This document shows, in pieces, positions 1-37,256 of a DNA stretch of 64,000 nucleotides. The notes below the pieces were generated by a model that did no database searches, had not been told where the DNA came from, and saw nothing but the letters and a program-made list of their open reading frames with translations. Position 1 is the stretch's first letter. Each line of letters starts with the position of its first letter. The translations under genes and the position numbers were made by a program. Source of the stretch: an uncultured Planctomycetia bacterium (lineage in GTDB: Bacteria; Omnitrophota; Gorgyraeia; Duberdicusellales; Duberdicusellaceae); contig CAZWJT010000006.1 of NCBI GenBank assembly GCA_964634935.1, positions 74,189 through 138,188 of the forward strand, in the 5' to 3' direction.

Positions 1-179
1 TTTTTACATACGAGACCGGGATATCCCAAGAGGATGGCGTTGCATATGGCAAGTGGGCGCTTACGTGGTTCAAGACGATCATACCAAAAACAACATCAGC
101 TTTTTCCCAACCTGCACGAAATAAAGAGCGTTTTCAATCTATCTGTATTGTTACAGAAAGCGGGCTGAGTGATTGTTTT

Positions 180-3100
180 GTGTATCCGGGCACGGCACTG
201 TTTTTGTCAGGATTTATTTTCTTGCTTTGGATGCTTTGGGCTACCCATCAGCCTCACGGTCCGCCGATCTTACTGCATTCTGACCAAACAAATCTTTCTG
301 TGCATCCAAGCGGAAATTTCATTCCTTCTTCAGTCCGCTTTCGTCTTGATAACTCCTTGCAGATTACCCGTCTTTATGAATATGTGCACTCGATGCGGCA
401 TTTATCCGGAGATCTCTCAAGACTCTTAAACCATATTCGCATTGGCAGCGTTATTGTTATGAAAATTTGTGAACAACTCGCGATGAAAAGGGAAGATGCC
501 GCTCTTGTCCGTGCCGCCTTTGCGCTTCATGATCTTGGAAAGATGCAAAACCAGGAACTATGGAATATTATTCTTTCCGATAAGACATATCCCCGTAAAG
601 ATCCGGATAACCCTGAACGTAGGCTCATTAACCAACATGCAAGATTTTCAGCTGAAATGATTCATGAATTTGGGATGGAAGTTGCTCCTGAGGTTATTTC
701 TTTGGTCCGACAGCACCATACTCCGAAGGAATTAGAGGGTCGGTTGCGCGTTTATGGGGAAATCATCTATTGGGCTGATGTTGTTGATGCCATGGTGGCT
801 AAGCGTTCTTATAAGATCAATCTTGGTACAAGTGATGATTGGGTTATTGAATCCATGGACGATTTGCGTCTGACACTCCAGAAACTCAGGGATTCTAATT
901 TTTCTTCTGCCCGATGTATTCATAAAGAGATTTATACCGCGCTCTGTAGGTTTATTGAAACAGAAGCATTTGCTGCTTTATACCCTCATGTTGATCTATC
1001 AGGGAAAAAACATATTTCAGTCGGAGAATCATCATTCGCGATGATCAACAGGATAGCTCCGTATTTATTTCAAGCTGTAATGCTCTTGCGCAATTTTAAG
1101 CTTGATGGTGTTATTACGCATATTTATATAACCGGTAGTTTTGTCACTGGGGGATGCAGTATCCCTCCCGATGACATTGACTTTGCCGTGAGCATTTCAA
1201 CGAGCCATTTCCGGTATCTCCCTTATTCAAACCAAACAGAGCGCATGGTCAAGGAATTGGAAGAAATTGGTCGTCAGGCACAAGTCAGGTTTCACTTAAC
1301 GCTTGATGCTTTTGGGTATGTGGTTTACCCCGGTCAAGAACTTTCCGTGACCGGACAGATAAGGAATCAAGTACTCGTTGACGCCATGCGAGAGCGCGGA
1401 CAAGATGCGGGGGTATTAATTGATCTAACCAACGCTGATATTGTAAATGGTGATTTTTTCATAGGCCTTTACCAAAAAATTGTAAGCCGCGGTATTGCCG
1501 GTTTAGAAGCATATAAGGCGCAGAGAAAGAATATATTGTTTTCACACTGCCGGATAAATTTAGAAATTATTTTCTTGGTATTTCTTTTTTGTTTCTTCCT
1601 TTTTGCGCACGGACCGAAGTCTGACGCGCATCCGAATTTTCTTTATAGAGCAGCAGAAGAATTAAAACAGTACCAGGCAGTATTAGGGGGGATTGGTCCT
1701 GCGGTCAGTATTTTTGGATCAGCTAGAACTAAAGAACAAGACCAGCAGTTTGCCTTCGCGCAAAGTTTAGCGGAAAGGGTATCCCGGGCCGGATTTTCTG
1801 TGATTACTGGAGGTGGTCCGGGAATTATGATGGCTGCTAACAGCGGAGTTGCTTATGGTAAATTATCGGTTGGCCTGAAAATAGATTTGGCGAAAGAACA
1901 AGTGTTGAATCCATCGGTAAATGCAGTTTTATATTTCAAATACTTTTTCGCCCGCAAAATGACTTTTATCACGGCAAGCGACGCCTTTCTTTGCTGTGTT
2001 GGCGGTTTTGGAACACTCGATGAACTCTTCGAAATTCTGGCGCTAAAAGACAGAGGGTATCTTGGGGATTTTCCGGTTATCTTAACAAACCGTAAGTTTT
2101 ATGATGGACTGATGCATCTTTTGCGAAAGCTTATTTCTTATGGTTTTCTGCGCGGAAGAATCAAGAATTTACTCTTTATCGAGGATGACCCTGAAAAGAT
2201 AGCAGGTTTACTTATCGATTCCGTTTCCCGGGTAAGGAAAAGCCAGAATAATATCGATATTGGAAGAATATTAGTTGAATTTTATCGTGTATTTGTCAAG
2301 CTTGGGCAATTAGGCCCAGCTGCGGGAATCGTCGGTTCGGAATTTATTACAAGCGAAAGTAAAAATTATTACAAAGCACGGCAAATTGCTGAACGTTTAG
2401 CCTTGGCAGATATTTCTCTTATTTGGCGTGGAGGACATGGTGTGGGAGCGGCCGTCTGGGATGGTTTTCAGTCAGCACGGAAGAAAGACCGGAGTGTGAT
2501 GGCAAAGGCTGTTTCTTTATGGATCAGTGAGCGTCCGAATCGCCGCTATCGAGCAACTGGTGATGTGCGGCTTGGATTTCACTATATGTTTGAACAAAAA
2601 ATAGCATTGGTGCGCCATGCGACCAAGGGGTTTATTTTTTTCCCTGGCGGCACTGGCACACTCGACGTGCTTTTTGAAGTTCTCTGTCTTTTGCAGACAG
2701 GGAAAATACCTGCCGTGCCGGTTGTTCTGGTTGACAGGAAATTCTGGGATCCGTGGGATAGGTGGTTTCGCCATGAGCTTGTTCCTCATGAAACTATCTC
2801 CGGAAATGATTTGGATCTTTATCAGATAACCGATAGTCCCCAAGATGCAATTGAGGCTATTTCTCAGGTTCATTACAAGGCACATGCTTTTTTCTGTCCT
2901 CCTTGGTTGGCTCTTATGGTATTCATTATGGTTCTCATATGGAGCGTAGGAAGACGTACGAGTGACCCAACGCATCGGTTGCATTGCCTATTTTCGGGCA
3001 TTCCAGTTTCCAGTACTTTCTTATTGAGTATCGTCGGGGTATTGTTTTTTCTTGGAATCTTTATTGTGTTTTATCGATTCCAAATGGTTCAGTGCAAGCC

Positions 3101-6100
3101 TCGTTCTAAGTTTTTTGAAAACCGCTTTGTGAATGCTCAGGGCAGATTTTTCATTCATCGCTACGGAAAAATAATTAAAAACAAGAAAGGGTATTTTACG
3201 GAGAGTGACCGGAAAGAGCTTTTGAGCTTTCGCGCCCTCTTTGGAGATTTGCGGTCTATAAAATATAGGGCTCGGCATTGTATTGTTTCAGCGAATCAAG
3301 TCTGCGCCTTACTGAAAGGCAAGGGATTTTTCGTGACGAAACGGACAATCTATGCTTATTATGTGCACCATGCGTTCTGCTCGGTGCGTCTGGGAGGAGT
3401 TGATTTTATTCTTGATCTTACTTCCGAGCAATTCGAAGGATATTGGGAAGATTTTGCTAACCGCCCGAAGTTTCTGGGATTGGTTCTAATTCCGGCAGAT
3501 GAGGTATTTGTTCAGAGAGATAAGTTTTTCTTTTATGTTCCCCAGGCCACTGCTTACAATGGTGTGTATGTGGTTTTTGATGCAGATGATTCAGGCCTTG
3601 AACACGGATATCTTGTTGTTTCTGTAGGATCAGAGGTATTGGAAATAAGGCCGCTGGGAGATCGAGATTTTACCAAATATGCTCGGGAGGATATTGATCC
3701 ATTGGTTCGCCAGAAAGCCAAGGAACAAATTCCAACCAGTCTAGAAAATGCGCATCCCGGCTCAGAGAAAACAGCTGTTTTTTGCCTATGGTCTTTTTCT
3801 GTATTCTTGGTTTGCGCGGGTCTCCTTTTGGTATTTTTACCGGCAAAACTGTTTGAGCGCCCGGACGGTATTTGTAATTTTTCAGTACGAAATACCCCCT
3901 ATAAAGGAGCCGTCATTATTATCGGCGGTTCTTCGGGTAGCTTTGATATTATTGAGGCGATCGTAAAAAAAATACGTAGGCCGCATCCGCCCATTGTTAT
4001 TTTAAAACACTGCATCGAACCTTATATTGTTCAGGAAATGATTGAGCGGCTCTCGCTTCGCGGGAAAATCATTGAGCATAACGAAAGGATAGAGCCTTCG
4101 TTTATTTATTTTGCGGTCGAAGGGCGCCATGTAAAATTTACCGAAGATGAATTCGGGTATCGTTTCTTACTTTCTCGACGTTCACAAAGCAGGCTCGGAT
4201 TCGTTCCTTCGATCGACAAGTGTTTTTTCTCCGCCGCAGACGTTATAGGAGAAAAAGTAATCGCTCTTATTTTGAGCGGTTGGGGTAATGACGGGGCGAG
4301 CGGTGTGTTTGTTTTGCGCCAGAAAGGAGCGGTTACTATTGCCCAGCATCCGGAATGTTCGCAAAGGCCGGATATGCCGCTTCACGCAATTTCTTCCGGT
4401 GGCATTACTCATATTTTAAGTCCCTTGGCAATCCGCGATCTTCTTATGCGACAGTCAAGTTCCGGTTTATCCTCCAGCTGTTCGGTTTTTCCTCCATTCG
4501 GATTATTGGTTTTAGTGATTTTTTTCTTGCTTACTCTAGGCAGCTTCGCGCAAAGAAAAGAGAATTATTTCCGAGGTGGCACGGTTGCCCGATCAGAAAC
4601 AATCAGCGCGCGAATCAAGCTGGCAATACAGCAGCGTAGCCTTACGGTTTCTGAATTCACAAAATGCCTTCATCGCCAAATGCGGATGATGGAGCGGGAT
4701 CCAGAAACTACCCCCGAAGCCGTCAGACGTTGGCTTACTGGAGAGCATCATCCGGATATCAAAATAATTCCTGCGTTGGCCGCGACATTAAAAGTAAGTC
4801 CAAGTTGGCTTGTATGCGGTTTGTCTCAACAAGAAGCAATGCGGCAGCCAGTGCTATTGCCAAATGAACAAGAAAAATCAGGATCAAGCCTCGGGAGGCG
4901 TATATTGATTTTACGGTGGATACAAGGAATCACTTCAGTTGAGTTTGCCAAGAAAACAGGAATGAGTCTTGGTAATCTCAACAATATTGAACAGCATCTC
5001 GCAACGTACCCTCGGCCAGCATACCTAGGAAAGATGGCCCAGGTTTTGGGCGTCAGCACTTCGATAATTCTTACTGGTTTTGAGCGCAGCCAGGTAATCG
5101 ATTATTTGCGATATGCCAAAGACAGGTTTCTGTTTCTCAGGTTATGCGCCGGGATGACCCAGGATGAATTATGGGAAAGGCTTGTTGACTCCTATGGGGT
5201 AGATGTCGAAGGAAGGACTACTGTTGCGCAATGGGAGCGCGGCGTGACGCCTCAAGATCTGCGGATACGAAAAGCTCTCAGTAATCTCTACGGGATTTCT
5301 TGGGCTCGTTTAAGCGCCTATAATCCAAGAGGCAGAAGACTCAGTGAATTTATGGAATTAGAAGCGGTGGCACGGATGCGTAACTATTTTGAGAAGATCA
5401 TTGATTCGAATCTTCCAGATTCTTCTATTGTGGTGCGGTTTCCGACGATCGTAAGCGATATTATCATGGCCGATGATCTTGAGTATGATATCAACCCCGT
5501 TGTGAATATGTTATTCGATTTGGTGGCGGAGAATACCGTAGGCGGAAGGGAGATTCGCTTAAGAAAGATAACCCACGCTTTAGATTTCTATCAGAAATTA
5601 TTTCTTTTGCGACCGGGAACCTGGAGATTGCGAGACGAGCGGGCAAAATATTTTGCGAGTGTTGTTTTAAAATCTTTTGTAAACAGGGTAAATCAAGCAG
5701 GGATTGGCAGTAGAGCAACAAAGAAGATAGCCGCCCAAATATTCTGGTCTGATATTGTTGAGTCATTAAGCGGAGGCAGCGGCAATAGGTGTGCAATAAA
5801 ATTTATTGAGGTCCAAAAAGAAAATCAACCATGGTTGAGCCGGAAAGATTTGATTGCCCGCACAGGAGTTTCGCAGTCTTTGCTCAACCGGTACGGGTTT
5901 TCAAATATTGCACTACGTTTGGGTTGGTCGTTGGCTGATTCAGATTCCGATACTCAAGAGTTCTTGAACGGGGCTCAAGGGTTTCGAAGGCGGATTTTTG
6001 ATTTTTACCAGAGGCATCGGCGGTTTCCCAAGAGAGAAAAAGGAGGTTTGCGTGAATCAGATATCTGGGTGATTGAGCTTTCAAAAGCGATGCTGGGAGG

Positions 6101-7598
6101 AAGTCTTGCTATGTTTCGGCTCAGGTTCTTTGAGGATTTTTCTTCAGAGATAAAACTATTCATCAAGCATGCCCGGCCGAGCGTCCAAAAACGCATGTAT
6201 GCAGAATTACTCCGGGTTTTACCATTTGACAGGGATGCTTTAGAATTTTCTTCTGTCGATAAAACTGAGCGGGCCAAAGATGAGGTGCGGATGCGGAAGA
6301 TAATCCCTGATTATGATACAAAGGTGAAAGAATATCACTGGTATGATTGCGCTACGCTTCGAGAACGGGGCATTCAGGATTTATCGACCGCCAGTGATCT
6401 TATCGTCAGTTATGCGGATTTTGGTTCGCTCTCGTCGAAGCAGCTTGCGCGCTTGTGGTTCGAAATGCGCAGGGGTAATACCATCGCTCGCAATTTTATT
6501 ATGGACTCAAACACTGGATTGATTATTTCGTCAGCAAGAGATATCTCTGGACGTTCCATGGCGCGGAATATCAGTCAGGCGGACTTACGCAATGAAGGAT
6601 GGTTTGGATTGCGTGTTGCCGCGGAACGATTTGATCCTTCTCGAGGTACAAAATTTTCTACGTATGCAATGTGGTGGATCATGCAAGCGCAAACAAGACT
6701 ATGTCTATATGGAGGAAGAACGATACGGGCAGATCCCGCCCTCGTCAATCGTTTTTATCGGCTCCAACAGAAAATGACTGAACTCGATAACGCTCCAGAG
6801 CAGCAGAAAGGCCGCAGGACTTACGCAATTATTTATGAAAAAACCAAGCGGGAATTTGAAAAATTACGCTGGTTCTTGCAGGGAGCGTTAAACACGAAAT
6901 CGTTGAATGATTCGGTGGGCTCTGATGAGGAGGGCACTTTGTTCTCGGAATTTGTTGAAGATGTTAAATCTGAGGATCCGGAAGATGCTGCAGGGGTGTT
7001 TGATGAGCGTGAATTTGTCAGAGATTGTCTTGCTCAAATACCAGATGAAAGAGATCGGCGGATTCTTGAGCTGCGCTATGGGGTAAAACCGCCTACTTCC
7101 GCAGAGTGGCAGATACTGCAAGAAAAAAAACCAAAGCTTGAATGCAATCCTTTCACCAGTTGGCCAAAGGGACGGGATCATCTGACTTTAGAGGAGGCCG
7201 GCTTAATTTATGGTATTACCCGCGAACGCATCCGGCAGGTTGGCAACAGAGCAGAAGATGTCTTTGCTGCTATCGTTTGTGCAAACCGGCGGCGGTTTTA
7301 CACAATAAAAGATTTGTCTGAAGAAAGAAATCTTGAATGTTTCTGTCCATTGCCGACGGTCATTGTAATCATTCTTTCATTATTTCTGGCGGCACAAGGA
7401 ATGTTTTTTACGGTTACAGAAGCATCATGCCAGCAGATTGCGCCATGGTGGAACCAGCGATCCGGAATGATGCATAGGAATATACGGGGGAAGGATTGTA
7501 ACCAATTTCTCAGGCGCAATAAGAGGGGTATCAGGTTGCCAGACAAAACACTTTATGAATTTTCCCTGGTGCCTGAGCATAAGCAGAAAAATAATTGA
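180..7598 (+). CDS. Giant multidomain signalling protein (at least 2472 aa; the frame stays open back to window position 3, so the true start may lie upstream of the window). Domain order: HD-GYP-like, minimal NTase, 2x LOG/SLOG, TM cluster, unknown domain, TM, CheB-type methylesterase, TM, 3-4 HTH_XRE, sigma-70 r2-r3-r4, C-terminal TM.
   Basis: Six-frame track shows one ORF of 2472 codons. My own translation of 3..179 in the same frame finds no stop. By-eye motifs: VHSMRH...ALHDLGK...RQHHTP...ADVVDAMVAKRSYK (HD-GYP family, GYP lost). ITGSFVTGGCSIPPDDIDF (GS-x11-DxD minimal nucleotidyltransferase). SIFGSAR...ITGGGPGIMMAANSG...SDAFLCCVGGFGTLDELFE and RGGHGVGA...FFPGGTGTLDVLFEVL (two LOG / Lysine_decarbox-like Rossmann domains). 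VIIIGGSSGSFD...PIVILKHC...LSGWGNDGASG...TIAQHPECSQRPDMPLHAI (CheB methylesterase, Ser/His/Asp present). Several XRE-like helix-turn-helix segments. IARNFIMDS...FSTYAMWWIMQAQTR and ILELRYGV...LTLEEAGLIYGITRERIRQ (sigma-70 regions 2 and 4). Confidence 0.6.
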   Translation: MYPGTALFLSGFIFLLWMLWATHQPHGPPILLHSDQTNLSVHPSGNFIPSSVRFRLDNSLQITRLYEYVHSMRHLSGDLSRLLNHIRIGSVIVMKICEQLAMKREDAALVRAAFALHDLGKMQNQELWNIILSDKTYPRKDPDNPERRLINQHARFSAEMIHEFGMEVAPEVISLVRQHHTPKELEGRLRVYGEIIYWADVVDAMVAKRSYKINLGTSDDWVIESMDDLRLTLQKLRDSNFSSARCIHKEIYTALCRFIETEAFAALYPHVDLSGKKHISVGESSFAMINRIAPYLFQAVMLLRNFKLDGVITHIYITGSFVTGGCSIPPDDIDFAVSISTSHFRYLPYSNQTERMVKELEEIGRQAQVRFHLTLDAFGYVVYPGQELSVTGQIRNQVLVDAMRERGQDAGVLIDLTNADIVNGDFFIGLYQKIVSRGIAGLEAYKAQRKNILFSHCRINLEIIFLVFLFCFFLFAHGPKSDAHPNFLYRAAEELKQYQAVLGGIGPAVSIFGSARTKEQDQQFAFAQSLAERVSRAGFSVITGGGPGIMMAANSGVAYGKLSVGLKIDLAKEQVLNPSVNAVLYFKYFFARKMTFITASDAFLCCVGGFGTLDELFEILALKDRGYLGDFPVILTNRKFYDGLMHLLRKLISYGFLRGRIKNLLFIEDDPEKIAGLLIDSVSRVRKSQNNIDIGRILVEFYRVFVKLGQLGPAAGIVGSEFITSESKNYYKARQIAERLALADISLIWRGGHGVGAAVWDGFQSARKKDRSVMAKAVSLWISERPNRRYRATGDVRLGFHYMFEQKIALVRHATKGFIFFPGGTGTLDVLFEVLCLLQTGKIPAVPVVLVDRKFWDPWDRWFRHELVPHETISGNDLDLYQITDSPQDAIEAISQVHYKAHAFFCPPWLALMVFIMVLIWSVGRRTSDPTHRLHCLFSGIPVSSTFLLSIVGVLFFLGIFIVFYRFQMVQCKPRSKFFENRFVNAQGRFFIHRYGKIIKNKKGYFTESDRKELLSFRALFGDLRSIKYRARHCIVSANQVCALLKGKGFFVTKRTIYAYYVHHAFCSVRLGGVDFILDLTSEQFEGYWEDFANRPKFLGLVLIPADEVFVQRDKFFFYVPQATAYNGVYVVFDADDSGLEHGYLVVSVGSEVLEIRPLGDRDFTKYAREDIDPLVRQKAKEQIPTSLENAHPGSEKTAVFCLWSFSVFLVCAGLLLVFLPAKLFERPDGICNFSVRNTPYKGAVIIIGGSSGSFDIIEAIVKKIRRPHPPIVILKHCIEPYIVQEMIERLSLRGKIIEHNERIEPSFIYFAVEGRHVKFTEDEFGYRFLLSRRSQSRLGFVPSIDKCFFSAADVIGEKVIALILSGWGNDGASGVFVLRQKGAVTIAQHPECSQRPDMPLHAISSGGITHILSPLAIRDLLMRQSSSGLSSSCSVFPPFGLLVLVIFFLLTLGSFAQRKENYFRGGTVARSETISARIKLAIQQRSLTVSEFTKCLHRQMRMMERDPETTPEAVRRWLTGEHHPDIKIIPALAATLKVSPSWLVCGLSQQEAMRQPVLLPNEQEKSGSSLGRRILILRWIQGITSVEFAKKTGMSLGNLNNIEQHLATYPRPAYLGKMAQVLGVSTSIILTGFERSQVIDYLRYAKDRFLFLRLCAGMTQDELWERLVDSYGVDVEGRTTVAQWERGVTPQDLRIRKALSNLYGISWARLSAYNPRGRRLSEFMELEAVARMRNYFEKIIDSNLPDSSIVVRFPTIVSDIIMADDLEYDINPVVNMLFDLVAENTVGGREIRLRKITHALDFYQKLFLLRPGTWRLRDERAKYFASVVLKSFVNRVNQAGIGSRATKKIAAQIFWSDIVESLSGGSGNRCAIKFIEVQKENQPWLSRKDLIARTGVSQSLLNRYGFSNIALRLGWSLADSDSDTQEFLNGAQGFRRRIFDFYQRHRRFPKREKGGLRESDIWVIELSKAMLGGSLAMFRLRFFEDFSSEIKLFIKHARPSVQKRMYAELLRVLPFDRDALEFSSVDKTERAKDEVRMRKIIPDYDTKVKEYHWYDCATLRERGIQDLSTASDLIVSYADFGSLSSKQLARLWFEMRRGNTIARNFIMDSNTGLIISSARDISGRSMARNISQADLRNEGWFGLRVAAERFDPSRGTKFSTYAMWWIMQAQTRLCLYGGRTIRADPALVNRFYRLQQKMTELDNAPEQQKGRRTYAIIYEKTKREFEKLRWFLQGALNTKSLNDSVGSDEEGTLFSEFVEDVKSEDPEDAAGVFDEREFVRDCLAQIPDERDRRILELRYGVKPPTSAEWQILQEKKPKLECNPFTSWPKGRDHLTLEEAGLIYGITRERIRQVGNRAEDVFAAIVCANRRRFYTIKDLSEERNLECFCPLPTVIVIILSLFLAAQGMFFTVTEASCQQIAPWWNQRSGMMHRNIRGKDCNQFLRRNKRGIRLPDKTLYEFSLVPEHKQKNN
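380..810 (+). other. HD-GYP-like phosphohydrolase domain (degenerate GYP motif) inside the giant ORF
   Basis: HS..H, HDLGK, HHTP and ADVVDAMVAKRSYK line up with the conserved HD-GYP blocks HDIGK / HHE.WDGSGYP / ADVFDALTS.RPYK; the GYP tripeptide is replaced (TPKELEG). Confidence 0.55.
1110..1450 (+). other. Minimal nucleotidyltransferase (Pol-beta superfamily) domain inside the giant ORF
   Basis: ITGSFVTGGCSIPPDDIDFAV fits the hG[GS]-x9-13-DhD signature. Confidence 0.5.
1700..2760 (+). other. Two tandem LOG/SLOG (PF03641-like, TIGR00730-like) Rossmann domains inside the giant ORF
   Basis: GGGPGIMMAANSG + CVGGFGTLDELFE (copy 1, about 1700-2110) and GGHGVGAAV + FPGGTGTLDVLFEVL (copy 2, about 2415-2760). 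Confidence 0.6.
3905..4440 (+). other. CheB-type methylesterase/glutaminase-like domain, flanked by predicted TM helices, inside the giant ORF
   Basis: IGGSSGSF (cf. IGASTGGP), PIVILKH (cf. PIVIVQH), LSGWGNDGASG (cf. LTGMGRDGAAG), TIAQHPECSQRPDMPLHAI (cf. TIAQDEATCVVYGMPREAI). Hydrophobic stretches precede it (AVFCLWSFSVFLVCAGLLLVFL) and follow it (FGLLVLVIFFLLTLGSFA). Confidence 0.6.
4590..5330 (+). other. Three consecutive XRE-family helix-turn-helix modules inside the giant ORF (a fourth HTH-like segment sits near 5830-5910)
   Basis: Repeated pattern of the form L....R...G.T..E.A...G.S...L...E.G (e.g. RSLTVSEFTKCL..., ILRWIQGITSVEFAKKTGMSLGNLNNIEQ, LRLCAGMTQDELWERLVDSYGVDVEGRTTVAQWERG). 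Confidence 0.45.
6400..7260 (+). other. Sigma-70 family module (regions 2, 3 and 4) at the C-terminal part of the giant ORF
   Basis: Region 2.x: NEGWFGLRVAAERFDPSRGTKFSTYAMWWIMQAQTR (cf. FSTYATWWIRQAI). Region 4: RRILELRYGV...LTLEEAGLIYGITRERIRQVGNRA. Confidence 0.6.
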
Positions 7599-7647: not shown

Positions 7648-8436
7648 ATGGTACCAGAGAAAACAGTGGATGAGATAAAAGGTATAAACTCGAAACGGGG
7701 TTTTTTAACTACCCCGGATCAGGTAGATATTTCTTACGTTCATTACTCAAGTGGCCGGAGGAAAAAAGCGGTAGTTATTGCTCACGGTTTTTTTAATAGT
7801 AAGAATTCCCCGCTTCTGCAGGTTCTAAAAGACGCGCTTATCTCTGAGTATGATGTGATTTTGTTTGATTTTCGGGGGCATGGAGAAAGTTCGGGGCTGT
7901 TTACCTGGACTTCCCATGAGTCGCTCGATCTACGAGCGGTTTTGCAATATGCGCAGAGTCATTATTCTATCCTTGGTCTCATTGGTTTTTCTCTGGGTGC
8001 TGCAACGAGCATTAACGTGCTTGCGAAGTATGATTGTGTTCAAAGTTTTATTTCCATCAGTGCCCCTGGCAGTTTTTGGGGTATCGATTATCATTTCTGG
8101 GCTTTGAATTTTGAGAACGATCTTTTCTATACTTTTGGCAGAGAAGGAAGAGCGGGGAAAGGAGTGCGTCCTGGGCCATTCTGGCTTAGAAAAGAAAAGC
8201 CGATCAAGAATATAGAAAGTATCCATTGTCCTGTTTGTTATATTCACGGAGAAAAAGACTGGGTCATCTTACCATATCATTCCCAGAGATTATTTTCTAG
8301 AACGAAAACCCAGAAGGTATTTCACGTTATTCCTAATGGTTTTCACGCTGAGTATCTATTGCGCCAGCAGCGTGAAATAATCATAGATTCCGTATGCCGT
8401 TGGCTTACCGAAACGCTTCATGAAGGAGGTGTATGA
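7648..8436 (+). CDS. alpha/beta-fold hydrolase
   Basis: AVVIAHGFFNS...RGHGESSG...GFSLGA (nucleophile elbow GxSxG). A TATAAT sits 7 nt upstream at 7636-7641. Confidence 0.7.
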   Translation: MVPEKTVDEIKGINSKRGFLTTPDQVDISYVHYSSGRRKKAVVIAHGFFNSKNSPLLQVLKDALISEYDVILFDFRGHGESSGLFTWTSHESLDLRAVLQYAQSHYSILGLIGFSLGAATSINVLAKYDCVQSFISISAPGSFWGIDYHFWALNFENDLFYTFGREGRAGKGVRPGPFWLRKEKPIKNIESIHCPVCYIHGEKDWVILPYHSQRLFSRTKTQKVFHVIPNGFHAEYLLRQQREIIIDSVCRWLTETLHEGGV

Positions 8437-8774
8437 TGGAGGGGTTTGGAGTAGAAAAACGCATGTTTCATCGGTTTCCTTGCGCTATGGGCAGTGTGTC
8501 CGTACGTAACCTGCAGCGTGATTTCGAAAGCAGCGGTCGATGTGTTGATCTTTCTGCTGGCGGGATCAGCTTTGAAACTGAGAAGGTTTTTTTCCCGGGT
8601 GATCCTGTCGAAATCTGGATGGATTTAAAGAACAACCTTTCCTCTTTCCAGCAGGGCGGGAAAGTAGTTTGGGCAAAGCGTATGTATCCTGAAAAATTCC
8701 GGATTGGTATTGAGTTTCAGGAACCCCAACTTACCAAGATTCATCAATTGGTTGAAGGTATTTGTAACTCGTAA
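8433..8774 (+). CDS. PilZ-domain protein (c-di-GMP receptor family)
   Basis: RMFHRFP ... DLSAGGISFE resembles the PilZ RxxxR ... D/NxSxxG motifs. Its ATGATGG start overlaps the upstream stop (translational coupling). Confidence 0.55.
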   Translation: MMEGFGVEKRMFHRFPCAMGSVSVRNLQRDFESSGRCVDLSAGGISFETEKVFFPGDPVEIWMDLKNNLSSFQQGGKVVWAKRMYPEKFRIGIEFQEPQLTKIHQLVEGICNS

Positions 8775-8791
8775 TCTGAAATATTAAGTTA

Positions 8792-8819
8792 TTGAATTAA
8801 ATAATACTTATGGTATAAT
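8792..8819 (+). promoter_or_regulatory. Sigma-70-like promoter TTGAAT-16-TATAAT upstream of the ABC transporter operon
   Basis: ttgaat(8792-8797) ... tataat(8814-8819), followed by AAGGAGG and ATG 8872. Confidence 0.4.
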
Positions 8820-8871
8820 TTCCACCATATTGTCTACCCTCTAATAGCCATCTAGCATGAAGGAGGACGGG

Positions 8872-10167
8872 ATGAGAAATATCTTCTCTGTGGCGGTAAG
8901 TTGTATAATTTTACTGTGCGGATGTTCATCGGAACAACCCTCCCAAAAATCCTCAGCTCGAGAAATAACAGTATGGTATTGGATGGTTGATCGTAAGCAG
9001 GCCTTTGAGGAATTAGCCAAGAAATATGAACAGGAAACCTCAGTCAAGGTCAATTTTAAACTGTTTTCTTCAGATATCTATGCGCAAAAAGTCATTGCTG
9101 CCGCCCGGGCAGGAAGTCTTCCGGAAATTTTCGGCATTCTTGGTGAAAAGAAGATGCTCGCCTCTTTTATCAAAGCCAACCATATTTTAGATTTAACGCC
9201 CTATATGCTGAAGGATTCTTCGGCGTGGAAGAAACGTTTCTATCCTCAAGTTTTAGGGCAGAATTCTTTTGAGAAAAATAATATATACGAAGTGCAGGAA
9301 GGAATTTATGGCGTGCCGATAGATATGATGAATATTCAATTTCTCTACAATCGGGAATTGTTTCAAAAGGCGGGGCTTAACCCGAATCAGCCTCCGGTTA
9401 CTTTTGAAGATTTCATTCAGTATGCTCGTTTGGTGAAGGAGAAGACAGGGGCAAAAGGGTTTGCGTGCGGTTGGGGAGAAGTCTGGCTTATGTCATGTGT
9501 TTTTTCTGAATGGGCGATGAATCTCCTCGGAGAAGATATTTTTCATAAAACGATTCAAGGAAAAATACCGTATACGAGCCCTCAATGGATTGAAGTATTT
9601 AGTCTTTTTGACAGACTGCGCCAAGAAGATGTGCTTCTGCCTAATATTGTAAGCACTATTAATAAAGAAGCTGAGCAGTATTTTGCTGACGGGAAATCCG
9701 CGTTTTCATTTGACGGCAGCTGGTGTATTAACATCTATCAGGAGTTAAATCCCAAGCTTTCCTACGGAGCGTTCCCTTTGCCGATCGTATCAACAAAATT
9801 TCCAATAAGGATCTGGGGCGGTGCTGGCAGTTCTTTTATGGTAAGTGCCATAAGTCCTCAAAAAGAAGAAGCGGTGCTGTTTCTTGCATGGCTGACAAAA
9901 CCAGAACAGCAAAAATATCTTATCCAATCTACCCGGAATCTTCCGGCGATTCAGGGATGCGAAGATACTTTTTCTGAGGCAATGAAGGAATTTGCCAATG
10001 ATGCCGATAAAATCACCCATCCTAATATCTGGCCGAAACAGGAAGATTCCCGGGTAACCGAGGTGATTATTAAGGGGTTGCAGCAGATTGTGATGGGCAT
10101 CACCACCCCGGAAAAAGTCGCTGAAGAAGTCCAGAAAGCAAAGGAGCGGATTGAGAAACAGCAATGA
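8872..10167 (+). CDS. ABC transporter substrate-binding lipoprotein (sugar family)
   Basis: Lipobox LLCGCSS after a hydrophobic N-terminus; size about 430 aa; followed by two MalF/MalG-like permeases; RBS AGGAGG before ATG 8872 (the ORF track starts at an earlier ATG, 8857). Confidence 0.8.
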   Translation: MRNIFSVAVSCIILLCGCSSEQPSQKSSAREITVWYWMVDRKQAFEELAKKYEQETSVKVNFKLFSSDIYAQKVIAAARAGSLPEIFGILGEKKMLASFIKANHILDLTPYMLKDSSAWKKRFYPQVLGQNSFEKNNIYEVQEGIYGVPIDMMNIQFLYNRELFQKAGLNPNQPPVTFEDFIQYARLVKEKTGAKGFACGWGEVWLMSCVFSEWAMNLLGEDIFHKTIQGKIPYTSPQWIEVFSLFDRLRQEDVLLPNIVSTINKEAEQYFADGKSAFSFDGSWCINIYQELNPKLSYGAFPLPIVSTKFPIRIWGGAGSSFMVSAISPQKEEAVLFLAWLTKPEQQKYLIQSTRNLPAIQGCEDTFSEAMKEFANDADKITHPNIWPKQEDSRVTEVIIKGLQQIVMGITTPEKVAEEVQKAKERIEKQQ

Positions 10168-11051
10168 GAAAAGACCTGCTTAAGGAAACAACGATAAGCT
10201 ATTCCTTTATCTTCCCCGCGGTATTTTTGTTCACTATTTTCTATATCTACCCGCTTTTCTATACGCTTTGGCTGAGTTTGCACCGGGGGGATGCTATTTC
10301 GTATATGAAGTTTGTTGGTCTTGCAAATTTTCAGGAAATACTTTTCCAAGACAAAGACTGGTGGCGTTCGATTTATAATGCAGGATTTATTACATTTTGG
10401 GCATTAACATTCCAGAATATCCTTGCGTTTGTTTTGGCGCTCGGCGTCGATAAGGCAATACGTCTGGGTAAACTTTACCGGGTTGTTTTTTTTATTCTGC
10501 CAATTCTTTCTGAGATTATCATCGGGCTTCTGATGCGTGAGATTCTTTTGTCTGAGCCGGGCATTTTCAATAAGCTTCTGTCAAACGTTGGGCTAGGTTT
10601 TGTTATCCGCGATTGGCTTAGTTCAGGAAATGTTCTGCTTACTACAGCTCTTGTGCATTGTTGGAAAGGATTTGGCTGGGCATTTGTGATTTTTCTCGCA
10701 GGTTTACAATCAATCCCCGCACAGCTCTATGAGGCAGCTCGAGTTGATGGAGCAAACGCTTGGCAAAGTTTTCTGAAGGTGACCTTGCCGCTTATGATTC
10801 CGGTAACTGCTATGGTTTTTGTTTTGACTATCCTTGGTACTATGCAGGCATTTGCCATGATTCTTGCTTTAACCCGAGGCGCAGGAGGTCTCACTGAGGT
10901 TCCGGTTATGCGCATCTACAACCATCTAAAAGACGGACAAGTCGGGTTTGCATGTGCTGAAGGGGTTATCCTTGGGGCACTCCTTGTTTTTGTTTCGTTC
11001 GTGATGTTCAAATTCTCGAAAGCGGTGCGAGAAAAGTATGGTGTATTATAA
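10164..11051 (+). CDS. ABC transporter permease (MalF-like, sugar)
   Basis: Six-TM profile; EAA-like loop AARVDGANAWQSFLKVTLP. Confidence 0.85.
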   Translation: MRKDLLKETTISYSFIFPAVFLFTIFYIYPLFYTLWLSLHRGDAISYMKFVGLANFQEILFQDKDWWRSIYNAGFITFWALTFQNILAFVLALGVDKAIRLGKLYRVVFFILPILSEIIIGLLMREILLSEPGIFNKLLSNVGLGFVIRDWLSSGNVLLTTALVHCWKGFGWAFVIFLAGLQSIPAQLYEAARVDGANAWQSFLKVTLPLMIPVTAMVFVLTILGTMQAFAMILALTRGAGGLTEVPVMRIYNHLKDGQVGFACAEGVILGALLVFVSFVMFKFSKAVREKYGVL

Positions 11052-11877
11052 GGCAAAAAAAATAGCATTACTTGTCATTATTCATACATTTCTTTTGAGT
11101 GTGGCTTTAAGCTGCGTCTATCCGCTTGTCTGGATGATTAATGCATCGTTCAAAACCGAACATGAATTTCGGCAAGATCAAGGTCTTTCTTTTGCTCAGG
11201 GTTTCAATCTTTCCAACTATGGAACTGCGTTGCGCGAAGGGAATCTCGGGATCAATTTTCTCAATAGCGTTTTTTATACATTTATAACTGTTACTTCCAT
11301 TGTATTTGTTTCTGCTCTTGCAGCATACGCATTCTCGCGTCTTAAATTTCCCGGGAAAAATATTCTTTTCGGAATGTTCCTTGCGGCAATGATGATACCA
11401 CTACCTGCCGGGTTTGTTCCAGTCTATATTTTGCTCAACAAGCTTCATCTTGTAAATAGAATTGGGTATGTTTTTGCAATGGTCAATATGGGGCTTTCCT
11501 TAAGTATCTATCTTTTGAAGACTTTTTTTGACCAGCTTCCTTCGGCGCTTGAAGATGCTGCCAGGATTGACGGATGCGGACATTTTGGGGTCTGGTGGCA
11601 TGTTGCTTTGCCGCTTGTCCGGCCAGCGTTAGCAGTAGTGGTTATTTTTAATGCGCTCACAGTTTGGAACGAATTTGTGCTTGCCTCGCTTATGTTTAAT
11701 AGTGAAACGCTCATGCCGCTTCAGGTTGGTTTGATGGAATTCTATAATCGGAATGTTATCCAGCATACATTACTTATGGCTTCGCTCACGATCGGGGCTG
11801 TTCCGATAATCCTTGTATATCTGAAGATGCAGAAACAGATTATCAAGGGTATTACCCAGGGAGCTTTGGTAGGATGA
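11038..11877 (+). CDS. ABC transporter permease (MalG-like, sugar)
   Basis: EAA loop DAARIDGCGHFGVWWHVALPLVRP; overlaps the upstream permease. Confidence 0.85.
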   Translation: MVYYKAKKIALLVIIHTFLLSVALSCVYPLVWMINASFKTEHEFRQDQGLSFAQGFNLSNYGTALREGNLGINFLNSVFYTFITVTSIVFVSALAAYAFSRLKFPGKNILFGMFLAAMMIPLPAGFVPVYILLNKLHLVNRIGYVFAMVNMGLSLSIYLLKTFFDQLPSALEDAARIDGCGHFGVWWHVALPLVRPALAVVVIFNALTVWNEFVLASLMFNSETLMPLQVGLMEFYNRNVIQHTLLMASLTIGAVPIILVYLKMQKQIIKGITQGALVG

Positions 11878-14162
11878 AGGAACTTTTTTCTTTAATACAT
11901 TGTCTAAGAAGTAGAATGATAAAGCAATGCGTGTTTATTGTGGCTTGTTTTCTGGTGTTTTTACCAGCGCTTCTTGCTCAGTCTGATTCTTCGGAATATC
12001 TTACAAAAGCTTGGGAAGCGCTGGGAAAGCGTAATTTTGAAGAAGTTGCACAGTTGACTGCGCGCTGTGCCCAAGAATTTGGCCCTCAGGCTGATTTGCT
12101 TGCGCAAGGTATGACGAAAATACCTGAGCAGGAGGAATCAAAATACAAGGTATTGAATGATGTCGCAGTGTGCTATTTTGTTCAAGGCGAGTCTTTAATG
12201 CGCCAAGGGAAAATTGAAGAGGCAAAGGAGGTTTTTCGAACACTTATCGGGAAATACCCCTATGCATCTGGTTGGGATCCGCGCGGTTGGTTCTGGTCAG
12301 TAAAGGAGAAGGCGGAGATCACTCTCACTAAACTCGAGAAAGGCGTGATTGAAGAGGACAATATTGAGAAAAATATTGTTATCACGCAGATTACCCTTGC
12401 TGATCCGGGAGCTTCACTGCCAATTGAATATGAGAAATTTGGTCAATTCAAAGGGGTTGGGACAAAAGACTATGAGTTTATGGTTACTGATATGGAGGGT
12501 TTAGTGAAGGCTGCGGGGGAAGGCGTTTATCCAAACTCGACCTCGGTACGCTATGATCCAGAGTTTGTGCGGATGAAAAATAACAAGGAATTGCAAGCAA
12601 AGCATTGGGATATTTTGAATGGCAGGGATTTGAAGAAAGCGTTCTATATTTGGAATATTTGCGGAGAGCCAGCGGGCATTAAACAGTTTTATATCGGAGA
12701 TCTTCTTGAACGGAGTGGTCTTATCGAACAAGCAGTCAAAGCGTACTATGCCTGTCTTGTATTTTTTCCTCGCACCTACGGTTGGACATATTGGCATACA
12801 CCGTGGTATATAGCTGAAGCAGCTCTTGCCCGTATTGAGTATCTATTAAGTACTTTCCCGCATCTTGGTTTAAGACTTGAAGGGGCTTCGGTAAAGATTG
12901 TAAACGGTTTTGACTACGATGTTTCAAACGATGTTTTTGTTATTAATCCTGGTAAGATTGTGCGAAGCGAATCTTTGAATTCTGATATTCGTAAGAAGCT
13001 GGGAGCTGTTCAGAAGAGCGTTGGTACAACGGTGCGTCTTGTACAGTATGAATCAGGCGATTGGCAGCTTTTTGTCCACGATAAACCGTTTATTGTTAAA
13101 GGCATTACATATGCTCCGACAAGGGTAGGAGAGAGCCCGGATGAGGGTACTCTTGCGAATTGGACAGAGCAGGACACAAATAAAAACGGACTTATTGATG
13201 GTCCATTTGATACCTGGGTTGACAAAGATTATAATGGAAAGCAGGATCCTGGCGAGGAAATACAAGGTGATTTTAAGTTACTCAAAGATATGGGGGTCAA
13301 TGCATTACGGGTATACCATCAACCAGCAGAGCCTAATAAAAAACTTTTTAAAACTCTTTACGAAAATTATGGTATAATGGTTATTATGGCTGATTTCCTC
13401 GGAAAATATGCGATTGGAAGTGGTGCTTCTTGGTCCGAAGGAACAAACTATTCCGACTTAAAACATCAAGAAAATATGTTGAGTTCTGTTCGAAAAATGG
13501 TTCTTGAGTACAAAGATGAGCCCTATATTCTTTTTTGGTTGCTCGGGAATGAAAATGTTTATGGGGTTGCCTGTAACGCGAACAAAGATCCGGAGAGCTT
13601 CTTTAAATTTGCGAACAAGGCAGCGCAACTGATTAAAGAGCTTGACCCTACGCGTCCGGTGGCAATTGCCAGCGGTGATGTTTTGTATCTTGATATTTTT
13701 GGGAAACACGCACCCGATATTGATATTTTTGGTACGAATGCTTATCGGGGTAAATATGGTTTTGGTTTCATCTGGGATCAGGTAAAAGAATTTGCCAATA
13801 AGCCGTGCTTGATTACTGAATATGGTGCTCCAGCCTATGGAGAGGGTTATTCCGCTCAAGAAGCTGAAGATTTCCAGGCGGAATATCACCGTGCTAATTG
13901 GGCTCATATTATGCGCAATTCTTGTTGTCAAGGAGCGGGAAACGCCTTAGGAGGGATTGTTTTCGAGTGGCTTGATGAATGGTGGAAGGCTTATGAGCCG
14001 GCATACCATGACAGAAAAGGTCTTTTTACCGGGCCATTCTTAGATGGTTTTATGCACGAAGAGTGGCTTGGGCTTGTTTCTCAGGGTGATGGAAAAAATT
14101 CCCCGTTTTTAAGAAAATTAAGAAAAGCATATTTCACCTACCAGAATATCTGGAAAAACTGA
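11874..14162 (+). CDS. Secreted TPR-containing protein with C-terminal clan GH-A-like TIM-barrel glycosidase domain
   Basis: Signal peptide; KGITYAP...NALRVYH...LLGNENVYG...ITEYGAPAYGE...FEWLDEWWK; paralogous to the 15480..16706 product. Confidence 0.6.
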   Translation: MKELFSLIHCLRSRMIKQCVFIVACFLVFLPALLAQSDSSEYLTKAWEALGKRNFEEVAQLTARCAQEFGPQADLLAQGMTKIPEQEESKYKVLNDVAVCYFVQGESLMRQGKIEEAKEVFRTLIGKYPYASGWDPRGWFWSVKEKAEITLTKLEKGVIEEDNIEKNIVITQITLADPGASLPIEYEKFGQFKGVGTKDYEFMVTDMEGLVKAAGEGVYPNSTSVRYDPEFVRMKNNKELQAKHWDILNGRDLKKAFYIWNICGEPAGIKQFYIGDLLERSGLIEQAVKAYYACLVFFPRTYGWTYWHTPWYIAEAALARIEYLLSTFPHLGLRLEGASVKIVNGFDYDVSNDVFVINPGKIVRSESLNSDIRKKLGAVQKSVGTTVRLVQYESGDWQLFVHDKPFIVKGITYAPTRVGESPDEGTLANWTEQDTNKNGLIDGPFDTWVDKDYNGKQDPGEEIQGDFKLLKDMGVNALRVYHQPAEPNKKLFKTLYENYGIMVIMADFLGKYAIGSGASWSEGTNYSDLKHQENMLSSVRKMVLEYKDEPYILFWLLGNENVYGVACNANKDPESFFKFANKAAQLIKELDPTRPVAIASGDVLYLDIFGKHAPDIDIFGTNAYRGKYGFGFIWDQVKEFANKPCLITEYGAPAYGEGYSAQEAEDFQAEYHRANWAHIMRNSCCQGAGNALGGIVFEWLDEWWKAYEPAYHDRKGLFTGPFLDGFMHEEWLGLVSQGDGKNSPFLRKLRKAYFTYQNIWKN

Positions 14163-14233
14163 ATGCCAAGATATTGATTGCGAAAGAGGAAGAGTTGTTA
14201 CGCAGAATACATAGGCAAAAAGAAGGGGGTAGT

Positions 14234-15406
14234 ATGAGAAAAATAATTTCATTGAGTCTGGTTTTGTTCTTGTGCAGTATCGGGTCGCTTTTTGCTCAGG
14301 CAGTAAGCCCAGAAGGCGCACAAGATGTAAAGAAGTTCGATGTGTACACGGATAAGGCTTCGCCATCGAACCATTACGCTCCAAGCGGATGGATGGGTGA
14401 TGTGGGCGATCTTTCTCTTGATGATCAGAATATGGAAAGTCCTTATTCTGGTTCTACCGCAATCAAAATCACCTATTCGGCAAAAAGAGTTCAAAGCAAA
14501 GGTTGGGCAGGAATCTACTGGCAGAATCCGGCGAACAACTGGGGTAACCGCAAAGGCGGTTTTGATTTAACCGGATACAATAAACTTATTTTCATGGCCA
14601 AAGGTGCCCAAGGCGGAGAGGTGCTTTCTAAGGTGAAAGTTGGCGGTATTGGAGCAACGGGCGATGTTCCTTATCCTGATTCAGCAGAGAAAGAGTCAGG
14701 ACCGATCCAGCTCACCAATGAGTGGAAAGAGTATGTCGTGAATCTCACCGACAAAGACCTTTCTTATATCAGCGGGGGATTTGCTGTTATTTTTGAGGCC
14801 GACCAGAATCAAGCAGGCGCAGAAATATTTTTAGACGATGTTGCCTTTGTATTTGACCCGGACTTAAAAGCTGAAAAGAATGAGATTTCCTTTCCTTTCT
14901 ATATTTATTCAGACGGAGGGTCTTTGGATAACCATTTCATTCCTTCCGGATGGATGCCGGCCACAGCAGCACAAGACATCAAGTTTAACCAATACGAGAA
15001 GACCGCTCCTTACTCTGGAACGAGCGCCATCCGTATTGATTACAAAGATGTTTCTGGTACTCGCTGGGCAGGAATCTACTGGCAGAATCCCGCAGAAAAC
15101 TGGGGCGCCAAAGATGGGGGCATTAATCTTACCGGAGCAACAAAGCTTACTTTCTGGGCTCGCGGAGAAAAGGGCGGAGAAAGAATAGAAGAAGTCAAGG
15201 TAGGCGGTATTATGGGGCAGTATTCTGACTCAGATTCCGCTGGCATTGGTCCAGTTGTGCTCACGAAAGAGTGGAAACAATATACGATTGATTTACGCGG
15301 CAAAGATTTAAATTCAATCATCGGTGGTTTCTGTTGGGCGACAAATACCGACGTAAATCCTGAAGGAGCGACATTCTATTTTGACGAAATAAAATACGAG
15401 AAATAA
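14234..15406 (+). CDS. Secreted protein with two tandem about 165-aa carbohydrate-binding-module-like repeats
   Basis: Signal peptide MRKIISLSLVLFLCSIGSLFAQA. Internal duplication: SPYSGSTAIKITYS...WAGIYWQNPANNWG...KVGGIG versus APYSGTSAIRIDYK...WAGIYWQNPAENWG...KVGGIMG. Confidence 0.7.
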   Translation: MRKIISLSLVLFLCSIGSLFAQAVSPEGAQDVKKFDVYTDKASPSNHYAPSGWMGDVGDLSLDDQNMESPYSGSTAIKITYSAKRVQSKGWAGIYWQNPANNWGNRKGGFDLTGYNKLIFMAKGAQGGEVLSKVKVGGIGATGDVPYPDSAEKESGPIQLTNEWKEYVVNLTDKDLSYISGGFAVIFEADQNQAGAEIFLDDVAFVFDPDLKAEKNEISFPFYIYSDGGSLDNHFIPSGWMPATAAQDIKFNQYEKTAPYSGTSAIRIDYKDVSGTRWAGIYWQNPAENWGAKDGGINLTGATKLTFWARGEKGGERIEEVKVGGIMGQYSDSDSAGIGPVVLTKEWKQYTIDLRGKDLNSIIGGFCWATNTDVNPEGATFYFDEIKYEK

Positions 15407-15412
15407 TAAACG

Positions 15413-15460
15413 GAAGGCCCTCGGTAGAAGCTTTTTCTACCGGGGGCCTTTTCTCTGTTT
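15413..15460 (+). terminator. Rho-independent terminator
   Basis: GGCCCTCGGTAGAAgctttTTCTACCGGGGGCC hairpin followed by TTTTCTCTGTTT. Confidence 0.65.
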
Positions 15461-15479
15461 ATGCATAAACTATAAGTGT

Positions 15480-37214: not shown

Positions 37215-37256
37215 TTGCGTTCCTCGCTTTTAAGAATACTAAATAGCAATATTTCT

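Follow-up and report, generated by a model that had tools for sequence, protein, structure and literature searches.

The 3' end of a probable giant mosaic gene in an Omnitrophota-like genome carries a conserved RpoD-like sigma unit

What kind of gene joins nucleotide-handling enzymes, a methylesterase, DNA-binding domains and a sigma factor in a single reading frame of more than 7.5 kb? The question is raised by the start of contig CAZWJT010000006.1, positions 74,189 to 138,188 of the forward strand (assembly GCA_964634935.1), a 64,000-nucleotide stretch, here called the window, from an uncultured Planctomycetia bacterium that GTDB places in the Omnitrophota. The window opens inside an open reading frame (ORF) that ends at base 7598. 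An earlier note on this DNA, made from the letters alone, saw in it either a new type of mega-regulator, self-contained and both sensory and transcriptional, that would belong with the giant genes of some uncultivated lineages, or an assembly chimera. Our analysis suggests that bases 3-7598 probably form the tail of a giant mosaic gene that is a genuine part of the chromosome and belongs to a kind known from Omnitrophota and other Planctomycetes-Verrucomicrobia-Chlamydiae (PVC) lineages. We are fairly confident that the locus as a whole is best explained as the 3' end of such a gene, a chain of modules on hydrophobic linkers in which the modules are selected and shuffled. A giant mosaic ORF is expected in this lineage; the strongly conserved RpoD-like sigma unit embedded in it is not. 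The function of Omnitrophota/PVC giant genes is open in the literature, including whether the product acts as one chain or as cut pieces, and a housekeeping-type sigma factor is an informative passenger in this respect. Its activity is easily assayed, a freed sigma fragment would directly prove processing, and its location fixes the topology of its stretch of the protein, because a sigma factor must meet RNA polymerase and DNA in the cytoplasm.

The reading frame is real, as the earlier note held. On the plus strand it is stop-free from base 3 to the stop at 7596-7598, a run of 2531 sense codons (the earlier count of 2472 amino acids (aa) starts from the GTG at 180, the first possible start in frame). 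At the base composition of the region itself (GC 0.444) such a run has a chance of about 1e-66, the remaining five frames reach at most 86-156 codons without a stop, and with codon usage learned from 40 neighbouring genes this frame scores best in 25 of 25 consecutive 300-nt intervals. The 41 neighbouring ORFs end in TAA (19), TGA (11) and TAG (11), so the standard code applies, and recoding or stop reassignment, which had already been set aside on the same grounds, is ruled out. No in-frame ATG, GTG or TTG lies upstream of 180 within the window, and a search for a convincing ribosome-binding site at GTG180 found none; the missing site is weak evidence, because Shine-Dalgarno-type sites are rare in this genome (12 of 40 genes). 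For these two reasons bases 3-7598 are most probably the 3' part of a longer gene that starts upstream of the window. Of seven internal Shine-Dalgarno candidates for translation starts none falls at a module border, the only DNA repeats in the region are short chance repeats, and its promoter-like and terminator-like sites lie within about 1.3 standard deviations of shuffled means.

Two further sequences frame the analysis. L001 is a 15,988-bp contig from an independent Logan assembly of SRR12133403, located through a neighbouring protein. L002 is the one related locus given by a scan of one genome per species; it lies on contig CAZRVK010000003.1 (280,782 bp), labelled 'uncultured Planctomycetales bacterium', of which a 23.4-kb stretch was compared. 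The chain visible in the window, with helix-turn-helix (HTH) domains and sigma factor towards its end, reads as follows, all on the plus strand.

3..7598, +: open reading frame, 2531 codons and stop (stop-free frame, codon usage; independent assembly over 2920-7598)
174..245, +: hydrophobic segment 0 (aa 58-81; Kyte-Doolittle scans)
447..815, +: HD phosphohydrolase domain (aa 149-271; Pfam HD 41.6 bits against a cut-off of 22)
1089..1337, +: minimal-nucleotidyltransferase-like domain (aa 363-445; GS-x10-DDID motif, sub-threshold matches)
1566..1607, +: hydrophobic segment 1 (aa 522-535; Kyte-Doolittle scans)
1701..2204, +: LOG/SLOG domain 1 (aa 567-734; TIGR00730 167.2 against 96.35, Lysine_decarbox 156.8 bits)
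2316..2858, +: LOG domain 2 (about aa 772-952; Lysine_decarbox 75.3 bits for this copy alone)
2886..3074, +: hydrophobic cluster (aa 962-983 and 995-1024; Kyte-Doolittle; L001 ends inside it, at base 2920)
3075..3770, +: orphan Cys/His domain (aa 1025-1256; C...HH...D pattern, RHC, HHAF and ILDLT, by eye)
3771..3845, +: hydrophobic segment (aa 1257-1281; Kyte-Doolittle)
3900..4457, +: CheB-type methylesterase catalytic domain without receiver (aa 1300-1485; Pfam CheB_methylest 102.9 bits against 24)
4482..4550, +: hydrophobic segment upstream of the HTH-sigma unit (aa 1494-1516; hydrophobic in L002 too, 24% identity, C-terminal flank rich in lysine and arginine (K/R))
4593..5351, +: three XRE-type HTH domains (aa 1531-1783; HTH_3 and AlphaFold2 (AF2); 68.0% identity to L002)
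5352..6482, +: all-helical region with no assigned fold (aa 1784-2160; 64.7% identity to L002, gapless; conserved in all homologues)
6483..7268, +: RpoD-like sigma-70 regions 2.1-4.2 (aa 2161-2422; Pfam, TIGR02937, hhalign, PDB; 73.9% identity to L002)
7083..7181, +: insertion between sigma regions 4.1 and 4.2 (about 27-33 residues, aa 2361-2393; PP..EW...NP.T.WP.GRD)
7338..7394, +: hydrophobic segment after the sigma unit (aa 2446-2464; Kyte-Doolittle)
7395..7598, +: 67-residue C-terminal tail, non-conserved, and stop (the L002 ORF continues for about 2040 further residues)

The HTH-sigma unit in this chain spans about 900 residues, namely three XRE HTHs, the helical region and the RpoD-like sigma-70 part, and is free of hydrophobic segments in every homologue. 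Two of the HTHs pass the HTH_3 cut-off of 23 (23.7 and 27.3 bits) while the third, at 18.2, stays below it; an AF2 model of the unit, built on a three-sequence alignment, has a mean predicted local distance difference test (pLDDT) of 55.8 and is confident only in three HTH bundles (pLDDT 70-90). The helical region carries the motifs LDFYQKLF, KYFAS, SNIALRLG and VLPFDRDA, has no Pfam or PDB match, and was modelled with low confidence by AF2. For the sigma part, Sigma70_r2 (35.1 against 24), Sigma70_r4 (30.6 against 24.1) and TIGR02937 (68.3 against 42.9) all exceed their cut-offs, and primary sigma factors head the list of PDB matches (SigA/RpoD, E of about 1e-29). The hhalign alignment (probability 98.9%) is to RpoD residues 360-585 only. 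Conserved motifs aligned to RpoD are EGWFGL..ERFD, FSTYAMWWIMQAQTR in regions 2.3/2.4 and TRERIRQ in region 4.2; with FSTYA.WWI.QA..R and TRERIRQ retained, the residues for -10 and -35 recognition are intact, and sigma competence is predicted on that ground.

Compared with the primary and group-2 sigma-70 factors RpoD, SigA and RpoS, the unit shares regions 2.1-4.2 together with the core-binding, -10 (Y, WW, Q, T) and -35 (RERIRQ) residues, and the closest free-standing relatives of its sigma part carry the source names 'primary sigma factor', RpoD or RpoS. It differs from them in being an internal segment of a giant membrane protein, in its 640-residue N-terminal extension with three XRE HTHs, in having no detectable regions 1.1 and 1.2, and in a conserved insertion of about 30 residues in region 4. 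Its scores against the RpoD, RpoS and SigA models are about 100-110 bits where cut-offs are 354-572 (109.6 against 354, for example), and it is not an ortholog of any of them by that measure. The region 4 insertion is present in the window, in L002 and in the homologous proteins P0003, P0004, P0153 and P0007, is absent from RpoD, and could alter -35 recognition or contact with the beta flap. One homologue of the unit is already labelled 'sigma-70 family RNA polymerase sigma factor, partial' at NCBI. Parts of the unit may be catalogued already, because the Pfam accession PF27520.1 is precomputed for P0005, a protein that represents the N-terminal part of the unit; our own Pfam search gave no family for P0005, and a family for this region may be a recent addition to Pfam.

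Ahead of this unit lies the CheB module. Its triad is intact, with Ser1309, His1336 and Asp1431 aligning with Ser164, His190 and Asp286 of Salmonella CheB (1CHD/1A2O alignment). The catalytic domain aligns with the CheB structures (PDB 1CHD, 1A2O) over its full length. Unlike CheB, the module here has no receiver (no Response_reg match in the polypeptide), hydrophobic segments flank it, and no chemotaxis genes are seen nearby; the full-length CheB model PRK12555 scores 82.1 against a cut-off of 342.

These results bear out several of the domains that the earlier note had named by eye: the CheB-type methylesterase with its triad, the sigma-70 regions 2 to 4, the two LOG/SLOG domains, and the membrane segments between modules, of which seven hydrophobic segments were found. 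Others hold in part. Of 'three or more' XRE HTHs, two stand on profile scores and the third on its AF2 bundle with a sub-threshold 18.2 bits. The HD-GYP-like call keeps its HD half and loses its GYP half (HD_5 14.5 against 27.2, with no GYP after the HH motif). The minimal nucleotidyltransferase has matches, all of them sub-threshold, and the Cys/His-containing domain stays an orphan that nothing matches.

How the chain evolves is best seen from its relatives. In L002 (2-19519) at least 6505 codons pass without a stop, and the frame extends beyond the beginning of the 23.4-kb stretch. Only aa 1300-2431, the CheB module, linker, HTHs, helical region and sigma part, are common to it and the window, at 64% identity. 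Before this block, L002 carries alpha/beta-hydrolase, trypsin-like and TrmB-like methyltransferase modules; after it come the further residues noted above, with alpha-amylase and methyltransferase modules. The two loci are syntenic. Both are followed by a PilZ gene and by genes for sugar-binding and permease proteins, which are 49.6% and 51.7% identical respectively, and the shared block is better conserved than these neighbour genes. Between window and L002 synonymous sites are saturated (proportion of synonymous differences, pS, 0.73-0.86) and the proportion of nonsynonymous differences, pN, is 0.16-0.31. No indel occurs across 901 residues, and the linkers are 19-24% identical. The CheB part, at 52.7% identity, has a pN of 0.31 against a pS of 0.73. 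Purifying selection acts on the CheB module, the HTHs and the sigma part. That the HTH-sigma unit is junk is very unlikely, because it is better conserved than the transporter genes and recurs in several giants.

This recurrence extends beyond L002. When 1.84 billion representative proteins were searched exhaustively by HMMER with aa 1300-2431 as query, only six came up at E <= 1e-30, each covering HTH-to-sigma but leaving out CheB; taxon labels exist for five of them (four partial proteins from metagenome-assembled genomes (MAGs) of Candidatus Omnitrophota and one 'bacterium'), and one has a 5991-aa cluster mate from Omnitrophota. Two JGI (Joint Genome Institute) metagenome scans gave nothing of use, L003 being a distant ordinary sigma factor, and a scan of viral contigs returned no relative. 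In all, the HTH-sigma unit is found in at least seven giant proteins, all of those with a phylum name being Omnitrophota, and the flanking modules in the others include an acetate-kinase fragment, PPDK_N, GNAT and PCMT. LOG2 likewise has a relative at the start of P0001, an internal Omnitrophica giant fragment of at least 4240 aa, cut at both contig ends, where its partners are different. Because L002 keeps only the CheB-HTH-sigma block, with other modules on either side, these comparisons show the modules, and not the whole array, to be the conserved and shuffled units of selection. The comparison offers a concrete picture of giant-gene evolution, in which giant genes at one syntenic locus acquire or drop entire modules but retain the blocks under selection.

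Two side observations concern individual relatives. P0005 and P0007, from one MAG, overlap near-identically by about 150 residues and look like pieces of one giant gene, in the order HTH-sigma, hydrophobic segment, PCMT, hydrophobic segment, GNAT. At L004 (8410-9634 and 10001-14394), on an Omnitrophota MAG, a giant with the HTH-sigma unit starts immediately after a divergent AbiEii/AbiEi toxin-antitoxin pair and an exosortase EpsH/EpsI cluster, and its product begins with the signal-peptide-like MFLGQGHKRRVLSLFRVVSLILIPAILFCDPTFAQ.

The alternative that fares best against these data is the integrated membrane mega-regulator of the earlier note, in which the HD, nucleotidyltransferase and LOG modules would sense, CheB would modify, and the HTHs and sigma part would give a transcriptional output. 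Every listed domain type can indeed be signalling or regulatory, and CheB, linker and HTH-sigma stay together in two genomes. Protein-modifying modules (CheB, PCMT, GNAT) often adjoin the sigma unit, and at both loci the gene directly downstream encodes a protein of the PilZ family, known as cyclic-di-GMP receptors. However, those two genomes are the only ones in which CheB and HTH-sigma travel together, five other giants carrying the unit without CheB, and LOG2 is accompanied by quite other modules in P0001. In L002, the 10 kb that precede the CheB block lack the HD-nucleotidyltransferase-LOG-LOG-Cys/His series and hold hydrolase, protease-like and methyltransferase modules instead. The sub-threshold nucleotidyltransferase and the absent GYP motif also count against a nucleotide-signalling input. 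The earlier note had looked to homologues with the same collinear architecture as a check, and the only collinear part found is the CheB-TM-HTH-sigma block (TM, transmembrane segment) in L002. Because the full array is not conserved and its modules are shuffled, we consider a single integrated regulator improbable.

For the giant-gene reading, we compared the locus with the giant mosaic proteins described by West-Roberts et al. 2023 (bioRxiv 10.1101/2023.11.21.568195), Nielsen & Lui 2026 (bioRxiv 10.64898/2026.06.07.730766) and Seymour et al. 2023 (PMC10066038). Giants are tiled by unrelated Pfam families and include a 'multi-enzyme' class 1 and a regulatory Pfam module 1 with HD, GNAT and methyltransferases (Nielsen & Lui, 10.64898/2026.06.07.730766). 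The chain in the window is similarly tiled by many families with none dominating, HD, LOG, CheB_methylest, HTH_3, Sigma70_r2 and Sigma70_r4 being above cut-off. Its seven hydrophobic segments in 2531 aa amount to about one per 360 residues (an approximate Kyte-Doolittle count), and the Nielsen & Lui catalogue gives about one transmembrane helix per 370 residues in giants. Sequence conservation in giants is poor, as it is here except in islands. A large 'TM-only' class has been interpreted as modules that face the cytoplasm and are fixed to the inner membrane; predicted topologies are acknowledged to be implausible in places, and cleavage has been proposed, not demonstrated. Giants are reported to have GH2 hydrolases, carbohydrate-import genes or secretion/pilus genes nearby, and this one is followed directly by genes for an ABC sugar-binding protein, a pair of permeases and a pair of GH2_C proteins. 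Among the LOG2 and HTH-sigma homologues, six are labelled Candidatus Omnitrophota or Omnitrophica, one is labelled 'bacterium' and one has no label, beside the Planctomycetales label of the closest locus, L002.

The visible part differs from the described giants in having no SecA_DEAD, C39 or S8 peptidase, dockerin or repeat scaffold. The 'Archaeovorin'-type SecA_DEAD, C39 and S8 peptidase domains were looked for with Pfam in the 2531 residues seen, the N-terminal part lying outside the window. The suggestion of a giant gene of the kind reported from some uncultivated lineages is supported, its homologues being giant or truncated proteins and nearly all the taxon-named ones Candidatus Omnitrophota. 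The idea of a new type of system was not borne out, the anatomy matching published giant mosaic proteins. The embedded HTH-sigma unit itself appears to be previously undescribed: we found no mention of sigma-70, CheB or LOG in giants in the searchable main texts, the supplementary catalogues, with a possible PF04542 listing, lying outside that search.

An assembly chimera, or a frameshift that fused ordinary separate genes, was the other possibility raised by the earlier note, and we regard it as a very slim one. Across window 2920-18436 L001 aligns gaplessly and differs at four bases, of which the only one inside the ORF is synonymous. The two assemblies thus agree on 2920-7598 as contiguous and free of frameshifts, while bases 1-2919 lie outside L001 and are without independent support. 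What favours a misjoin is that L001 ends at a module border, at 2920 in the hydrophobic cluster after LOG2. However, a variant site at 2963, 43 bases inside the end of L001, suggests, by its closeness to the end, that strain variation and not a misjoin broke the contig at about 2920. The coding signal follows one frame in all 25 intervals, including the one that spans 2920, and separate genes would have retained their stops, of which there are none in 2531 codons. The at least 6505 stop-free codons of L002 contain the same block. Because the second assembly is collinear, and because a 64%-identical collinear block lies inside another giant ORF at a syntenic locus, a chimera is rejected for 2920-7598; this claim does not extend to 1-2919.

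It is equally hard to see the frame as a decaying remnant, in which former genes or modules were fused by stop loss and no longer function, and we give this very little credence. The sigma factor is oddly placed, the LOG2 motifs are degenerate, and for neither the Cys/His domain nor the C-terminal tail was a relative found. But 7.6 kb of decaying sequence would acquire stops, the low pN against saturated pS and the gapless 901 residues are those of constrained protein, and the catalytic and promoter-recognition residues are intact. Hardly any weight falls, finally, on an anti-phage or conflict system that would combine nucleotide modules and a sigma factor as in MZA or other defence islands: MzaA models do match the sigma part (NCBIfam 90.5 bits; PADLOC 42.3 bits), and weak PADLOC matches touch the LOG (PsyrA), nucleotidyltransferase-like (PDC-M63A) and HTH (RmrA) modules, but the former score stands against a cut-off of 800 and reflects the generic sigma core only (PADLOC covering profile positions 435-519 of 683), the other PADLOC matches are fragments at E 1e-3 to 1e-5, no other MZA genes or complete known defence architecture were seen in the gene or its neighbours, which are housekeeping and sugar-uptake genes, and the viral contigs held no relative.

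If the locus is the tail of a giant gene, how might a sigma factor work within it? On this reading the chain consists of self-contained globular modules joined by fast-evolving hydrophobic linkers that anchor it in the inner membrane. In the mechanism that we propose, the HTH-sigma unit would lie on the cytoplasmic face, in a loop of about 930 residues with a membrane segment at either end. Such a cytoplasmic loop fits the K/R enrichment on both unit-side flanks of the membrane segments that bound it (4 against 1, and 3 against 0). Retained at the membrane for as long as it belongs to the giant chain, the unit could act as a tethered pro-sigma factor, and would direct RNA polymerase to promoters of the -35/-10 type, most plausibly once the linkers are cut. 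The same cleavage might free the other modules in the manner of a polyprotein. This tether-and-release mechanism, drawn from the sequence, is a tentative proposal that we hold to be possible but doubtful. Somewhat less likely still is the broader claim that the unit represents an undescribed deployment of a sigma factor, as an internal segment of a membrane-threaded giant polyprotein that is either proteolytically released or holds RNA polymerase at the membrane. If it were true, synthesis of the giant protein would be directly coupled to a transcription programme in Omnitrophota-like bacteria.

Partial precedents exist for the elements of this scheme. Pro-sigma-K and pro-sigma-E of Bacillus are small sporulation sigma factors with membrane-associated precursors, which like the ECF52 factors below have just one extension. 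Viral polyproteins are threaded through membranes and cut between modules. With the latter the chain shares, by analogy and not homology, one long ORF, independent modules and hydrophobic separators; unlike them it is encoded by a cellular chromosomal gene, and no protease module or cleavage motif was identified in its visible part. ECF52 sigma factors, which are small and of the extracytoplasmic function (ECF) type, have sigma regions 2 and 4 only, combined with a zinc finger, a membrane region and an extension at the C-terminus that binds carbohydrate (SCO4117, PMC5826349). The gene in the window resembles them in placing a sigma domain and a membrane segment in one polypeptide, an arrangement that suggests, by analogy, control through tethering or processing. 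It differs in that its sigma part is RpoD-like with region 3, has unrelated enzymes around it in a protein that exceeds 2500 residues, and is accompanied by no zinc-finger or carbohydrate-binding domain in the Pfam search, which places it outside ECF52.

Several observations weigh against the reading developed here, in its identification of the gene or in its topology. The visible 2531 residues fall below the length thresholds used for giants, at least 10,000 aa (Nielsen & Lui, 10.64898/2026.06.07.730766) or an ORF of more than 20 kb (Seymour et al., PMC10066038), the gene being cut by the window start. The closest locus, L002, is labelled Planctomycetales while the other homologues point to Omnitrophota. 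No evidence of cleavage was found, and no junction motif is conserved at the module borders; AXA-like ends occur on five of the seven linkers here and are not a general feature, because only five of 28 linkers in the relatives have them. If the segments alternated strictly, CheB and both LOG domains would come to lie in the periplasm, an implausible location, and flank charges over 35 segments show no consistent orientation (15 positive, 16 negative). In P0004 and P0153, whose true gene starts are visible, a signal-peptide-like sequence comes first, about 240 residues before an HTH-sigma unit that begins at residue 276, a poor fit to a cytoplasmic sigma factor.

At the head of the visible chain, the HD domain has the motifs HDLGK, HH and DAMVAKRSYK. 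The nucleotidyltransferase-like domain has only sub-threshold matches, to DUF6932 (26.0 against 27), NTP_transf_2 (E = 0.032) and Polbeta (E = 0.078). The Lysine_decarbox/LOG match of 156.8 bits spans two stretches, and the LOG pair resembles LOG/TIGR00730 hydrolases in that copy 1 passes the cut-off with both signature motifs, GGGPGIM and GGFGTLDE, intact. It differs from them in forming two tandem copies inside a giant protein, the second without the motif Glu. The copy 2 motifs are degenerate, reading GGHGVGAA in the region of window 2424-2456 and PGGTGTLDV, with Glu changed to Val, in that of 2643-2678. This copy is 54% identical to the LOG module of P0001 (L005 3-431), which reads PGGLGTLDI; because LOG2 and its P0001 homologue both lack the motif Glu, the sequences suggest a conserved non-catalytic, perhaps ligand-binding, LOG/SLOG variant.

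The Cys/His domain has no homologue, with no Pfam match even at E up to 10 and none by phmmer against other giants, and a single-sequence AF2 model of it is unusable (pLDDT 37.5). Its PDB matches to IsdH NEAT domains reach only E = 0.014 and were treated as chance, and the NEAT assignment was dropped. At window 3270-3434 (aa 1090-1144) the domain reads RHC, 28 residues, then HHAFCSVRLGGVDFILDLT, by eye a transglutaminase-like or cysteine-protease core that no tool has confirmed; if this core were real, the domain could be a processing protease.

Downstream of the giant gene the plus strand continues with the following features.

7648..18336, +: downstream context of the giant-gene-locus type (Pfam annotation of L001)
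within 7648..18336, +: alpha/beta hydrolase and PKD protein (Pfam)
8433-8774, +: PilZ protein (Pfam; counterpart at L002 19624-20328, 27% identity over the PilZ part)
8857-10167, +: ABC sugar-import binding protein (Pfam; syntenic in L002)
10164-11877, +: ABC sugar-import permeases (Pfam; permease syntenic in L002)
11874-14162 and 15480-16706, +: two GH2 proteins (Pfam)

The PilZ protein sits right after the giant gene, ahead of the ABC sugar-import and GH2 genes. The rest of the window is ordinary chromosome of an outer-membrane bacterium, encoding NrdJ, GlmU, DnaB, BamA, EF-G, PurH, FolC and PcrA, and an Rfam scan returned only a tRNA-Gln (37256-37328). At 40347-43749 lies a housekeeping cluster of pth, rpsF, ssb, rpsR, rplI and dnaB, with nothing unusual about it.

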